In this document: one piece after another, positions 20,935 to 48,053 of the stretch | Layout of the letters: the number at the start of each line of letters is the position of its first letter | Position numbering within the stretch: position 1 is the stretch's first letter | Translations under genes and position numbers: made by a program | NCBI GenBank assembly: GCA_964603255.1 | Contig: CAZRVA010000004.1 | Location: 3,532-58,688 of the forward strand | Origin: an uncultured Chitinophaga sp. | GTDB lineage: Bacteria; Bacteroidota; Bacteroidia; UKL13-3 | Direction of reading: 5' to 3' | DNA length: 55,157 nucleotides | The notes under the pieces: generated by a model | The model's input: only the letters and a program-made list of their open reading frames with translations | Told to the model about the DNA's origin: nothing | The model's database searches: none

Positions 20935-20944
20935 AGAAAGTCTA

Positions 20945-21467
20945 AACCATGATTATAATGATTTGATGAATACTATGATTTCCTAGTTGTTAGATCATAT
21001 TTGAATAGCCTATTAAATAATTTCTATGATAAACGAAAAATACCCGGAGAGCGAACTTACAGCCAAAATTATTGGTTGTGCAATGGAAGTTCACCGTGTT
21101 CTTGGAAATGGGTTTCAAGAAGTGATTTATCAACGTGCGTTAGCTATAGAATTAACCAATAATGGCATAGAATTTAGCAGAGAGCATGAAATGGAAATAA
21201 ACTACAAAGGCCAATTTATTGGTTTGCGAAGGGTTGATTTTTTTGTAGAAGGCAGAGTGATGGTTGAATTGAAAGCAGTTATTCAATTAGAAGACGTTCA
21301 CCTTGCCCAAGCTATTAATTATCTTGAAGCCTATGGCTTGCCAATTGGATTACTTATCAATTTTGGAAGTACTAGTTTACAGTTTAAACGTTTGATGAAA
21401 TCGAAATTCATCAAAAAAACATAAACCCACAATCATAGTCCATCACAAAATCATAAAAATCATAGTT
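20945..21467. mobile_element. GxxExxY cassette 1 bounded by imperfect inverted repeats (20945-20980 / 21431-21467)
   Basis: About 30 of 36 left-arm positions match the reverse complement of the right arm; arms are built of ATGATT subrepeats. Mobility is inferred, not shown. Confidence 0.5.
21026..21424 (+). CDS. GxxExxY protein (PD-(D/E)XK-like)
   Basis: LGNGFQEVIY, RRVDFFVE, VELKA, AQAINYL, GLLINFG. Confidence 0.95.
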   Translation: MINEKYPESELTAKIIGCAMEVHRVLGNGFQEVIYQRALAIELTNNGIEFSREHEMEINYKGQFIGLRRVDFFVEGRVMVELKAVIQLEDVHLAQAINYLEAYGLPIGLLINFGSTSLQFKRLMKSKFIKKT

Positions 21468-21475
21468 AAAGACAA

Positions 21476-44917: not shown

Positions 44918-47389
44918 ATGACTAAAAAAACAATAGCCCTATTTTTTGTATCCTTTTTGTTTGTGGCAACCACCTTTGCCCAAGCTCCTCGCTCCTACAC
45001 CAGCAGCGAAATTTTATTGCAACTTAAAAAGTTAAACACCGTTGGTTCGGTGCTATACGTTGCGGCTCACCCCGATGATGAAAACACCCGACTAATAGCC
45101 TATTTGGCCAACGAAAAATGTTTGCGTACCGGTTATTTAAGTTTAACCCGTGGCGATGGCGGTCAAAACTTAATTGGCCCTGAGCAAGGTGTGGAGTTAG
45201 GTGTGATACGCACGCAAGAGTTATTGGCTGCGCGCAGAATTGATGGTGGCGAACAGTTTTTTACCCGCGCTTACGATTTTGGTTTCAGCAAATCGCCTGA
45301 AGAAACTTTACAAAAATGGAACAAGGATTCTATTTTAAGTGATATGGTTTGGGTGATACGCAACTTTAGACCCGATATTATTATTACCCGTTTTGCAACC
45401 GATGGCAGCGGTGGACACGGACATCACACCACATCAGCTATATTAGCCGAAGAAGCTTTTGATGCCGCAGGCGACCCTACCCGATTCCCAGAGCAATTGC
45501 AGCATGTAGAGGTTTGGAAACCACGCAGGTTATTTTGGAATGTTAGCACACGTTTCCAAAATCCAAATGCGGATATGAGCCCTTATATTAAGTTGGATGT
45601 GGGTGGATACAACCCATTGTTGGGCAAAAGTTATGGTGAGATTGCAGCCGAAAGCCGCAGCATGCACAAAAGCCAAGGCTTTGGCAGTGCCAAACAACGT
45701 GGCGAATACTTTGAGTACTTTAAACCCATTAAAGGCGATACCGTAGGATTGAAAGACATTTTTGAGGGGATTGATTTTAGTTGGAAAAGAGTGAAAGGTG
45801 GTGCGTTAATCAGCAGTTTAATCAATGATTGTGTGAGAAGGTTCAGCTTTCAGAACCCTAATTTAATTTCAAAGGATTTGTTTCAAGTAACAGGAGCAAT
45901 CATGAAAAGTCCTGACTACAAAAATTATTATCATTGGTATAAAAAAGCTGAACAAATTTTACTTGCTTGTGAAGGGGTATTTATTGAGAACACCAGCTCT
46001 AAATACAATTATAGTATTGGCGAAAACGTAATTATTGACAGAACAACTATCAAACGAAGCAGAACAGTTAGTGGTTCATTAGTTAAAGACTCATTTAACT
46101 ATCAACCCAAAAGTATCACCAATTTATACTGGTTAGCAACACCAATATCTAATAATCTTTTTAATGTGCCAATAAAACAAAACTTGCTGGAAAACGATAT
46201 GCCTCCATTCAGCTTTCTTGCAACAACAAAAATTAAAATCGACCAAATGAACTTTAGTACCTGGCATTCGCAGTTTTACAAATGGGTCGACCCGGAAAAA
46301 GGTGAATTATACCGCCCGGTGGTAATTACGCCTCCTGTAATGATTAATCCACAAAGTAAATTGGTTACATTTACAGATAGTAAAGTTAAAGAACTTCGTG
46401 TAAGCCTGAAAGCCGGAAGAGATAGCGTACGTGGCTTGATTCAAATTGCCTTACCCAAAGGTTGGAAAGGAAGTAAGTTTAACAATCAACTCAAAGCACC
46501 AACAGAGAGTGCCTTCACATTTAGTTTAGCTAAAAAAGGCGATGTTGAGGATGTTGTTTTAGAAATAAATCCATACGAAGGTGCTCAAGACACCACAATC
46601 AGCATTACTGCCTTAGTTGATGGCCAAACCTACACCAAAGGCATCAAAGAAATCAAATACGATCATATTCCTATTCAAACCTTATTCCCAGAGGCAGAAG
46701 TAAAATTGGTGAAGTTAGATGTGGTGAAAAAGAGCAAACGTATTGGCTACATTCCCGGTGCAGGCGATGAAGTACAAGCGTGTTTAAGTCAGCTTGGTTA
46801 TGAAGTAACAACGTTAACCGATGATAAATTAGCGAGTGAAAATTTGAGTGTGTATGATGCAATTATTACCGGAGTGCGTGCTTACAACACCAATCCAAAG
46901 CTGTTGTCCTTCAAACAAAAACTCATGGATTATGTGGCTGCAGGAGGTAACTTAATTGTGCAGTACAACACCAACAGTTGGGCTGGTCCGTTAAGCAGCG
47001 ATATTGGTCCGTATAAGTTTAAAATTACCCGCAACCGCATTACCGATGAAGAAGCAAAAGTGAATTTCTTGTTGCCAAATCATCCGGTATTTAACTCACC
47101 CAATAAAATTACCGAGAAAGATTTTGAAGGTTGGATTCAGGAGCGAAGCATTTACCATGCAGGCGATTGGGATAGCAATTATGTGGCACCTATCAGCATG
47201 ACCGACCCATACGAGATGACTGTTGGTGGCGTATCGCCCAAAGGTAAACCCGATAATGGCGCATTAATTATTGCAAAACATGGCAAAGGAAATTTTGTGT
47301 ATACAGGTTTAGTTTTCTTCCGCCAACTCCCTGCAGGAGTTCCGGGTGCTTACAGGTTTTTAGTGAATTTGATTGAACTTGGAAAGTAA
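44918..47389 (+). CDS. PIG-L/LmbE family deacetylase with C-terminal accessory domains
   Basis: AAHPDDEN, SLTRGDGGQN, GHGHH, SRSMHKSQGFG; C-terminal IGYIPGAGD...GGNLIVQY...FFRQLPAGVPGAYR. Confidence 0.93.
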   Translation: MTKKTIALFFVSFLFVATTFAQAPRSYTSSEILLQLKKLNTVGSVLYVAAHPDDENTRLIAYLANEKCLRTGYLSLTRGDGGQNLIGPEQGVELGVIRTQELLAARRIDGGEQFFTRAYDFGFSKSPEETLQKWNKDSILSDMVWVIRNFRPDIIITRFATDGSGGHGHHTTSAILAEEAFDAAGDPTRFPEQLQHVEVWKPRRLFWNVSTRFQNPNADMSPYIKLDVGGYNPLLGKSYGEIAAESRSMHKSQGFGSAKQRGEYFEYFKPIKGDTVGLKDIFEGIDFSWKRVKGGALISSLINDCVRRFSFQNPNLISKDLFQVTGAIMKSPDYKNYYHWYKKAEQILLACEGVFIENTSSKYNYSIGENVIIDRTTIKRSRTVSGSLVKDSFNYQPKSITNLYWLATPISNNLFNVPIKQNLLENDMPPFSFLATTKIKIDQMNFSTWHSQFYKWVDPEKGELYRPVVITPPVMINPQSKLVTFTDSKVKELRVSLKAGRDSVRGLIQIALPKGWKGSKFNNQLKAPTESAFTFSLAKKGDVEDVVLEINPYEGAQDTTISITALVDGQTYTKGIKEIKYDHIPIQTLFPEAEVKLVKLDVVKKSKRIGYIPGAGDEVQACLSQLGYEVTTLTDDKLASENLSVYDAIITGVRAYNTNPKLLSFKQKLMDYVAAGGNLIVQYNTNSWAGPLSSDIGPYKFKITRNRITDEEAKVNFLLPNHPVFNSPNKITEKDFEGWIQERSIYHAGDWDSNYVAPISMTDPYEMTVGGVSPKGKPDNGALIIAKHGKGNFVYTGLVFFRQLPAGVPGAYRFLVNLIELGK

Positions 47390-47395
47390 AAGGAA

Positions 47396-47944
47396 TTAAC
47401 CATAAAGGGAATCTAACCACGAGGGCCACTAAGAAAGCACTAGGTTCACCAGGCTGGAATAAAATAGTTGACAACCATTAAGATCTCTATGAACACGAAT
47501 AATTATACAGAAAATGAGTTATCGAAAATAGTTTTTGATGCCTCGCTTAAGGTGCACAAGGCTCTTGGACCCGGATTACTCGAGTCTGCATACCAAGAAT
47601 GCCTTTACCACGAATTGAAAAAGACGGAATTGTTTATTCAAAAAGAAAAGCCACTTCCTTTAATTTATGAAACAGTAAAACTAGATTGCGGATACAGACT
47701 AGATTTAATTATTGAAGACAAACTCATCATTGAAGTAAAATCAGTTGAAACATTAACAGACATTCATTTGGCGCAAGTACTCACCTATTTAAAGTTATCA
47801 AATTGCAAGTTAGGCCTGCTAATTAACTTTAATGTTCTTTTGTTGAAAGACGGATTCCGGAGGGTTATAAACGGTAATTTAAAATAGTGTACTTAGTGAA
47901 AACCTTTGTGCCCCTTGTGGTAAAAATCATGTCGCTGTGGTTAA
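47396..47944. mobile_element. GxxExxY cassette 2 bounded by imperfect inverted repeats (47396-47442 / 47885-47944)
   Basis: Nested complementary blocks TTAACCA/TGGTTAA, ACCACGAGGGCCAC/GTGCCCCTTGTGGT, CACTAAG/CTTAGTG, CACTA/TAGTG. Mobility is inferred. Confidence 0.5.
47489..47887 (+). CDS. GxxExxY protein (PD-(D/E)XK-like)
   Basis: LGPGLLESAY, YRLDLIIED, IEVKSV, AQVLTYL, GLLINFN. Confidence 0.95.
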   Translation: MNTNNYTENELSKIVFDASLKVHKALGPGLLESAYQECLYHELKKTELFIQKEKPLPLIYETVKLDCGYRLDLIIEDKLIIEVKSVETLTDIHLAQVLTYLKLSNCKLGLLINFNVLLLKDGFRRVINGNLK

Positions 47945-47954
47945 ATATAAATTT

Positions 47955-48053
47955 ATGAAAGAAGAAAAATTTAATACTTGGTACATCACCGTTATTGGTG
48001 CTTTGGTTGTGGAGATATTATTGTTTTATTTGTTTACGCAATATTTCTCATGA
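47955..48053 (+). CDS. 32-aa single-TM small protein coupled to the sodium:solute symporter
   Basis: Manual translation MKEEKFNTWYITVIGALVVEILLFYLFTQYFS*; its TGA overlaps the symporter ATG (ATGA). Below the ORF-track length cutoff. Confidence 0.75.
   Translation: MKEEKFNTWYITVIGALVVEILLFYLFTQYFS

Follow-up and report, generated by a model that had tools for sequence, protein, structure and literature searches.

A GxxExxY nuclease gene enclosed by inverted heptamer arrays in a PIG-L/symporter operon of an uncultured Chitinophaga sp.: a candidate mobile cassette

We analyzed a stretch of 55,157 nucleotides (nt) from an uncultured Chitinophaga sp. (contig CAZRVA010000004.1), hereafter the window, in which a small gene of the GxxExxY family is enclosed by inverted repeats in the spacer between a PIG-L family deacetylase gene and a sodium/solute symporter gene. 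This element, cassette 2, is one of two GxxExxY cassettes in the window. With moderate confidence, we consider cassette 2 to be a resident copy of a widespread, horizontally mobile, promoter-less, hairpin-nested nuclease cassette that is expressed by read-through. The observations that carry this interpretation are the anatomy of the cassette, its membership in the cassette family, a bias toward the sense orientation, the occurrence of arms and open reading frame (ORF) in a different context, the alternating content of the spacer in relatives, and the purifying selection that acts on both the ORF and the 3' arm. The cassette family is very large and apparently undescribed.

Anatomy and predicted fold of cassette 2

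The layout of cassette 2 and its host operon is given below; labels such as L001 denote comparison loci carrying relatives of window genes or cassettes.

44918-47389, plus strand: upstream host gene, PIG-L family deacetylase of 823 amino acids (aa) (PF02585, E = 1e-15; orthologs in 79 loci)
47396-47404, plus strand: outer 5' block, TTAACCATA, partner of 47936-47944 (pair probabilities 0.68-1.00)
47414-47453, plus strand: 5' arm, a TAACC terminus and four heptamer units (CACGAGG gc CACTAAG aaag CACTAGG tt CACCAGG; spacing 9, 11, 9)
47454-47488, plus strand: A-rich leader from the 5' arm to the ATG, without a promoter-like site
47489-47887, plus strand: GxxExxY gene, 132 aa, PD-(D/E)XK nuclease (TIGR04256, E = 1e-41; PF13366, E = 2e-40)
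47885-47921, plus strand: 3' arm (TAGTG ta CTTAGTG aaaac CTTTGTG cc CCTTGTG gt), reverse complement of the 5' units
47936-47944, plus strand: outer 3' block, TGTGGTTAA, pairing with 47396-47404; TCGCTGTGGTTAAA is similar to the arm unit found in L001 and L048
47955-48053, plus strand: hydrophobic ORF of 32 aa, its stop overlapping the symporter start (ATGA); tblastn identity of 53-97% in L001, L007-L011 and L019
48050-49768, plus strand: downstream host gene, sodium/solute symporter (TIGR00813, E = 2e-64; PF00474)

An earlier note on this DNA had described complementary blocks enclosing the ORF, the innermost including its TAG stop, in a cassette that begins 6 nt past the PIG-L stop and ends 10 nt before the ATG of a small protein; these descriptions were borne out, with coordinates exact to the base. 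The PIG-L stop TAA lies at 47387-47389 and TTAACC starts at 47396, while GGTTAA ends at 47944, followed by the 32-aa ORF with its ATG at 47955. The 5' heptamers occupy 47418-24 (CACGAGG), 47427-33 (CACTAAG), 47438-44 (CACTAGG) and 47447-53 (CACCAGG), and the 3' blocks occupy 47885-89 (TAGTG, which holds the TAG stop), 47892-98 (CTTAGTG), 47904-10 (CTTTGTG) and 47913-19 (CCTTGTG). Read as its reverse complement, the 3' arm is CACAAGG gg CACAAAG gtttt CACTAAG ta CACTA. The heptamer arrays are bounded by TAACC/GGTA termini, outside which TTAACCATA and TGTGGTTAA pair. The block at 47396-47404 probably remains from an older or outer terminus; L002, in which CRCNARG arms are clearly nested inside arms of the L006 type, offers a comparison case.

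The arm-arm duplex of cassette 2 was predicted at -46 kcal/mol, compared with -22.9 ± 4.0 kcal/mol in shuffles, none of which (0/500) was as good. When 576 nt were folded, the long-range stem was present in both the minimum-free-energy and the centroid structure, with 36 pairs in six helices and pair probabilities of 0.63-1.00, mostly at least 0.93. Three of the pairs were G:U, the C:A at the fourth unit was unpaired, and the mismatches within the predicted helices were sense-strand G:U. This pattern, a tiny sample, is compatible with some RNA-level constraint. As an inverted repeat in DNA, cassette 2 was weak (score 21, ~95th percentile of shuffles); the strength of its stem depends partly on G:U pairs. 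Among all window ORFs of 80-250 aa, the two GxxExxY ORFs ranked first and second for flanking inverted repeats.

The modest DNA-level score speaks for chance complementarity in an AT-rich spacer. This explanation was refuted by the shuffles, by the recurrence of the arms in dozens of loci, and by the clustering of CRCNARG units, which in the window occurred only at the cassette 2 arms (5 clusters observed versus 0.14 expected), and we give it practically no credence.

Since the arms are inverted repeats, they would zip into an interrupted stem of ~36 bp in the transcript, with the ORF looped out. Such a stem would draw the PIG-L stop to ~16 nt from the next start codon, as in a 23S rRNA intervening sequence (IVS). 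No intrinsic terminator (GC-rich hairpin plus T-run) was found at the cassette 2 arms, which are followed by an A-run instead, and no ribozyme core of a group I or II intron was detected in cassette 2 by Rfam, even at E <= 1. At gathering thresholds, Rfam returned nothing relevant for the whole window.

The encoded nuclease and its relatives in other loci

The cassette 2 protein scored 141.6 bits against TIGR04256 (cut-off 35) and 138.2 bits against PF13366 (PDDEXK_3; cut-off 22), which places it in the GxxExxY family. Residues G29, E32, Y35, D72, E82, K84, Q96 and Y100 were invariant in 27 sequences and all intact in the cassette 2 protein, where they make up the motifs G29xxE32xxY35, D72, E82xK84 and Q96xxxY100. 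The series E...D...ExK...QxxxY is the motif set of nucleases of the RecB/Cas4/lambda-exonuclease type. An AlphaFold2 model of the protein had a mean pLDDT of 85.8, and its best Foldseek matches in the PDB, none of them significant (E > 0.04), were lambda exonuclease, Cas4 SSO0001 and tRNA-splicing endonucleases. Together, the E, D, ExK and QxxxY motifs and these weak top matches point to a nuclease acting on DNA ends or single-stranded DNA. A sequence search of the PDB found no solved relative of the protein, and PADLOC and PHROGs gave nothing significant. Literature searches for "GxxExxY" and "PF13366" returned only incidental mentions, and no paper on the cassette architecture was found. Curators of the GxxExxY family reportedly noted large paralogous expansions.

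We compared the arms across 80 metagenome loci encoding proteins 62-75% identical to the cassette 2 protein, of which 77 genes were usable. Flanking inverted repeats exceeded the 99th percentile of shuffles in 58% of these 77 genes. Most aligned arms shared the consensus TTTAACC-CRCAAAG-NN-CRCAAAG-(A)TTTT-CRCAAAG-NN-CRCAAAG, with its reverse complement on the 3' side. The cassette 2 arm, four CRCNARG heptamers behind a TTAACC terminus, has the same unit-2-unit-(4-5)-unit-2-unit spacing, and this plan of inverted arrays around an ORF with TTAACC/GGTTAA termini was found in ~45 unrelated metagenome loci. The distance from forward to reverse array was bimodal, at either 6-78 nt (23 ORF-less hairpins, some of them tandem) or 374-548 nt (40 cases). 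Each of the long-distance pairs was at the locus-defining GxxExxY gene, 34 being flagged by script and 6 located at the protein-match coordinates.

Arm units differed among more distant relatives. Relatives ~50% identical to the cassette 2 protein in L204 (Bacteroides finegoldii) and L205 (Bernardetia) had CRCAGAG units, and the L204 arm duplex reached -57.8 kcal/mol with two G:U pairs (0/300 shuffles as good). L058, whose protein is nearer to that of cassette 1 (45% versus 31%), carried CACAGAG-like units, and L001 and L048 carried CACAGCGA units. Arm type thus appears to track the nuclease clade, though imperfectly.

Three of the comparison loci showed further arrangements around their GxxExxY genes. 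The gene of L001 (6485-7590) lies within arrays of the CAGCGAT/ACAGCGACCAC type that extend ~420 nt upstream and ~210 nt downstream, with a predicted duplex of -221 kcal/mol. In L115 (3392-3781), four tandem ORF-less hairpins with a period of ~101 nt directly follow a GxxExxY gene that has no 5' arm, and ~2.5 kb upstream is without a long ORF; Rfam at E <= 1 gave nothing relevant for these hairpins. An abiF RNA motif (RF03085, 45 bits) was found in L135 (938-975), ~400 nt downstream of a GxxExxY cassette.

The host operon provided a fixed site at which spacer content could be followed. Cassette 2 lies in the sense orientation within a conserved PIG-L, small ORF, symporter unit, with both neighbors on the same strand, and the order PIG-L then symporter was kept in most of 79 genomes. 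A GxxExxY cassette occupied this spacer in the window, L001 (65% aa identity), L002 (87-88%), L048 (71%) and L184, the last a population variant with 98% aa identity and a complete ORF-less hairpin upstream of the ORF. Ten further population copies were nearly identical, all at the PIG-L site. The same spacer in L006 and L012 contained a 23S_rRNA_IVP gene (PF05635) within near-perfect 30-bp heptamer arms, in L005 a pseudogene of it, and in L004, and there only, an IS200-like Y1 transposase gene. L009, L019 and L016 had an ORF-less hairpin of the same repeat family, and L007 a remnant. The earlier note had looked to empty alleles, and this check came out in part: the spacers of L007, L009, L019 and L016 lack the ORF, but they retain a hairpin of the same family and are not truly empty.

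These spacer contents bear on the possibility that cassette 2 is an ordinary, immobile host gene whose repeats serve as mRNA stabilizers, attenuators or a protein operator for a beneficial nuclease, for example in defense or repair. Purifying selection on the ORF, its stable position in the population and the strong conservation of the 3' arm agree with this explanation. We nevertheless judge it very unlikely, because close relatives have unrelated cassettes, or no cassette, in this spacer, the arms and ORF occur together in unrelated contexts, PADLOC gave no matches of note, and the flanks are without terminator features.

Evidence for mobility came from relatives at other sites. L116 and L125 were 89% identical over 467 nt, corresponding exactly to arms plus ORF, with unrelated downstream flanks, and L109 and L132 were 95% identical over 524 nt. 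Flavobacterium GxxExxY proteins shared ~76% identity with the window protein, compared with 40-47% for the more distant PIG-L orthologs in the set; this difference suggests horizontal spread. The family was abundant, with more than 8000 close relatives per clade and two members in the 55-kb window. Plasmid matches numbered five, and the two looked at closely both had the same design. No rRNA was found in the window or in eight loci with long ORF-free flanks next to GxxExxY genes.

Among the relatives, 44 cassettes had both neighbors on their own strand and one had both on the opposite strand (P = 3e-12), and the upstream neighbor was on the cassette strand in 53 of 55. The spacers were short, typically 40-100 nt on each side of the cassette. 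No promoter- or terminator-like sites were detected in the flanks by a scan that modeled sigma-70-like but not Bacteroidota-type promoters. The cassette would be expressed by read-through from a host promoter.

Other operons contained cassettes of the same design. In L185-L203, two GxxExxY proteins (P0104 and P0109) were encoded between BatD and a TPR/SH3 BatE-like gene in many samples; this spacer of the Bat operon is a second long-lived operon site, in hosts that appear to be of the Flavobacterium type. The cassette of L204, from Bacteroides finegoldii TSDC17.2-1.1, lies in a radA-GxxExxY-FAD gene arrangement. Cassettes with a 23S_rRNA_IVP gene were present in a fadB-fadA operon (L206-L211, 1164-1580), with spacers of 37 and 31 nt and an 18-bp stem, and a 23S_rRNA_IVP gene follows a Wzy gene in L212-L215 (1552-1815), succeeded by a long ATTCAAC/ATTTAAC heptamer array.

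Several observations weigh against a mobile nuclease cassette. Besides the non-significant fold matches, a hydrolytic nuclease of ~130 aa cannot alone perform strand transfer. Terminal inverted repeats (TIRs), as in TIR transposons and miniature inverted-repeat transposable elements, were present, but in 58 elements no direct repeat was found outside the termini as a target-site duplication. The window copy looks old and vertically inherited, with partly decayed arms; it shares its site with ten population copies and with its orthologs in L001, L002 and L048, and mobility is deduced from the relatives. No ORF-less copy of either arm family was found elsewhere in the 55-kb window. Finally, L001 and L048 have different arm units, although their proteins share 65-71% identity with that of the window.

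In the mechanism that we propose, a RecB/Cas4-like PD-(D/E)XK nuclease gene sits in the loop of a palindromic repeat element. The arms, inverted CRCNARG arrays with TTAACC/GGTTAA termini, would be cis-elements of the element itself, because they occur with the ORF in a different context, are conserved in sequence and differ between clades. The nuclease may recognize these arms and, by acting on the cognate hairpins, most likely in the form of folded DNA, spread or maintain the element. By analogy with the Coxiella IVS, RNase III would probably cut the stem in the RNA.

Pairing and sequence constraint in the arms

The earlier note had concluded that selection acts on pairing rather than on sequence. 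Related to this is the explanation that cassette 2 is a pure RNA-level IVS, with arms selected only to pair, processing by RNase III or otherwise, little polarity, and an irrelevant arm sequence. The strong predicted stem with its three G:U pairs and unpaired C:A, and a similar one in L204, agrees with this explanation. So do the strict sense-orientation bias, arms that abut the neighboring stop and start codons, and the existence of similarly built 23S_rRNA_IVP cassettes, both in this spacer and in other operons. In addition, RNase III excision of an architecturally equivalent element, the 23S IVS of Coxiella, was demonstrated experimentally (PMC4990558).

RNAduplex comparisons of own with other-locus arms were uninformative, since the units recur from locus to locus; alignment-based tests and unit parsing were used instead. 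At variable unit positions, own arms were more complementary (0.80) than arms permuted among loci (0.705 ± 0.027), a further point for an RNA-level IVS. Complementarity of the central spacer was 0.705 for own arms and 0.445 for permuted arms. The 2-nt spacers were mostly non-complementary, at 0.45 in own arms versus 0.28 in permuted arms.

Other results argued against selection on pairing alone. The arm sequences are conserved families across many unrelated genomes, and the tracking of nuclease clade by arm type contradicts the inference that only pairing is selected. Units were homogenized within an arm: the same A or G stood at position 2 of all three units in 43 of 46 arms, compared with 36% expected (P = 3e-16), a homogeneity that pairing cannot explain. 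Sense-strand G:U (31) was not in excess of A:C (38) across the family, and all four tandem hairpins of L115 had the same A:C mismatch on the strand of the gene. Uncompensated changes accumulated in the orthologous cassettes between BatD and the BatE-like gene. These results, together with spacers that are only 45% complementary, leave the claim of the earlier note unsupported, and we regard a pure RNA-level IVS as a possible but doubtful account of cassette 2.

Comparison of the window with L002 indicated where constraint lies. The ORFs were 75% identical in nt and 87-88% in aa, with 17 of 32 four-fold sites identical. The 3' arm was identical at 38 of 40 nt, compared with ~50% at four-fold sites (P = 2e-8), and the 5' arm at 31 of 43; in L184 the 3' arm was identical. 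From these alignments, the cassette 2 ORF is under purifying selection, and the arms are under sequence-level constraint that is asymmetric, stronger on the 3' than on the 5' arm. This asymmetry is a further point against a pure RNA-level IVS.

Relation to known elements, and cassette 1

The closest known kind of element is the ORF-bearing 23S rRNA IVS with an S23p/23S_rRNA_IVP ORF (Coxiella, Leptospira; PMC4990558). Like cassette 2, these IVSs are ~430-550 nt long, contain a small ORF looped out by terminal inverted repeats that form a long stem, have heptamer repeats in the arms, are transcribed in the sense direction within a host RNA, and show a patchy, horizontally spread distribution with ORF-less versions. 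Cassette 2 differs from them in lying in the spacer of an mRNA operon rather than in an rRNA helix, in encoding a PD-(D/E)XK protein (PF13366) instead of a four-helix-bundle protein, and in having an interrupted stem of 7-10-bp helices with internal loops. Because of its location outside rRNA and its different ORF, it is not a member of the IVS class. The earlier note had called the element intron/IVS-like. For the anatomy, "IVS-like" was fair, because the 23S_rRNA_IVP cassettes of L006 and L012, with their 30-bp heptamer stem at the same spacer, share the architecture of the Coxiella 23S IVS; the intron part fell away, as nothing indicates splicing and there was no ribozyme or Rfam match. An intron and a terminator were rejected for want of a ribozyme core and of a GC-hairpin with T-run, respectively; a classical transposon with TIRs and target-site duplication appears unlikely, no such duplication having been found in the 58 elements.

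REPIN/RAYT systems (Bertels and Rainey, PMC3116915) also resemble cassette 2, with a small nuclease-type gene between inverted copies of the repeat that is cognate to it, intergenic doublets that lack an ORF, one repeat family per enzyme clade and long vertical residence. Their enzyme is a Y1 HUH transposase and their repeat a single REP palindrome, whereas cassette 2 encodes a PD-(D/E)XK protein between heptamer arrays, its genes are multi-copy and horizontally spread, and its ORF-less copies appear scarce. A Y1_Tnp gene was found only in L004 (6512-7172), where a perfect, REP/RAYT-like palindrome of 36 nt, CATCATAGCCCACGGTTTAAACCGTGGGCTATGATG, stands in front of it. Of ORF-less doublets, the 23 short-distance hairpins all lie in other loci.

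A domesticated system of this type, in which a vertically inherited, host-retained nuclease copies or maintains ORF-less hairpins as the true replicators and not its own gene, would fit the flanking cognate repeats, the ORF-less hairpins of the same family, some tandem with copy numbers varying between strains, the long residence at the PIG-L and BatD-BatE sites, the separate repeat family of each nuclease clade, and the IS200/RAYT-like gene in the L004 spacer. It is at odds with the number and horizontal spread of the nuclease genes, with a hydrolytic PD-(D/E)XK enzyme in place of an HUH transposase, and with the rarity of ORF-less hairpins, few of which occurred in 0.7 Mb of PIG-L loci outside the focal site. 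We therefore consider it rather unlikely.

Two further comparisons were made. Integron cassettes with attC sites are likewise promoter-less single genes expressed by read-through, with imperfect palindromes that fold as hairpins, but in the elements described here the palindrome arms lie on both sides of the ORF, not only after it, and each cassette stands alone in its operon instead of in an array next to an integrase. An integron cassette was rejected, as there was no R''/L''/L'/R' organization and the termini matched RYYYAAC/GTTRRRY only sporadically. The heptamer direct repeats of cyanobacteria, Beggiatoaceae and some Bacteroidetes (STRR, TAACTGA; PMC4679880) are intergenic 7-nt arrays in the same phyla. 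They form direct arrays upstream of genes, in contrast to the inverted arrays around a nuclease ORF described here, whose units are 9 or 12 nt apart. The arms of the 23S_rRNA_IVP cassettes in L006 and L212 consist of TAACTAA/TAACTCA-like tandem heptamers.

On these likenesses, we tentatively raise the possibility, which we hold with low confidence, that GxxExxY genes and their cognate heptamer hairpins make up an undescribed class of prokaryotic mobile element. In such a class, the nuclease, acting on folded hairpin DNA, would insert or copy its promoter-less gene into the loops of operon hairpins; ORF-less hairpins would be non-autonomous members, and ORF-bearing 23S rRNA IVSs and part of the cyanobacterial and Bacteroidota heptamer repeats would be special cases.

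The origin and mobility of 23S rRNA IVSs have been without explanation for more than 30 years, and GxxExxY and 23S_rRNA_IVP ("four helix bundle protein") are very large orphan families in Bacteroidota, cyanobacterial and other genomes whose role is unexplained. The shared spacer, the shared hairpin-nested sense design and the clade-specific arms would turn these orphan families into a testable element class, linking the GxxExxY and IVP families, heptamer repeats and rRNA IVSs, with cognate hairpins as the predicted nuclease substrates. Systems in cultured hosts are available in radA-GxxExxY of Bacteroides finegoldii and in the BatD-BatE cassettes of apparently Flavobacterium-type hosts. For annotation, operon spacers with such cassettes should not be taken as operon boundaries.

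The other GxxExxY cassette of the window is the following.

20940-21474, plus strand: cassette 1 (5' arm 20940-20981; GxxExxY gene 21026-21424; 3' arm 21431-21474)

Cassette 1 is bounded by two stop codons, one of an OmpA-like gene (20934) and one of a convergent gene (21476), and fills the space between them; its protein is 32% identical to that of cassette 2. Its 5' arm consists of GTCTAAAC and (N)ATGATT units with a period of 9, and its 3' arm of AATCATA units and GTTAAAGAC. The predicted arm duplex was -27.9 kcal/mol (0/500 shuffles as good), and cross-pairing between the arms of cassettes 1 and 2 was at chance level. The earlier view that the two cassettes share an architecture with unrelated arms held for both. 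Relatives of clade 1 (L160-L173), in four independent contexts, had GTCTGAAC-TATGATT...AATCATAGTTCAGAC arms like those of cassette 1, and they often lay among tandem ORF-less hairpins whose number varied between strains. Viral contigs with cassette 1 represented a single locus.

In L169-L171 (~1050-2450), three to five tandem GTCTGAAC/TATGATT hairpins stood on each side of a clade-1 GxxExxY gene, with hairpin copy number and upstream context varying across samples. In L161-L168, a type I restriction-modification operon harbored a clade-1 GxxExxY gene downstream of an HsdR-like gene; the 5' arm of this GxxExxY gene was minimal and overlapped its start region.

Within the host operon of cassette 2, conservation of the 32-aa ORF in several relatives makes it probable that this ORF is genuine and encodes a small membrane partner of the transporter. 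A secreted YCII-domain gene was present between the small ORF and the symporter gene in L008 (6766-7224), L010 (6749-7204), L011 (6691-7146) and L184 (1766-2215).

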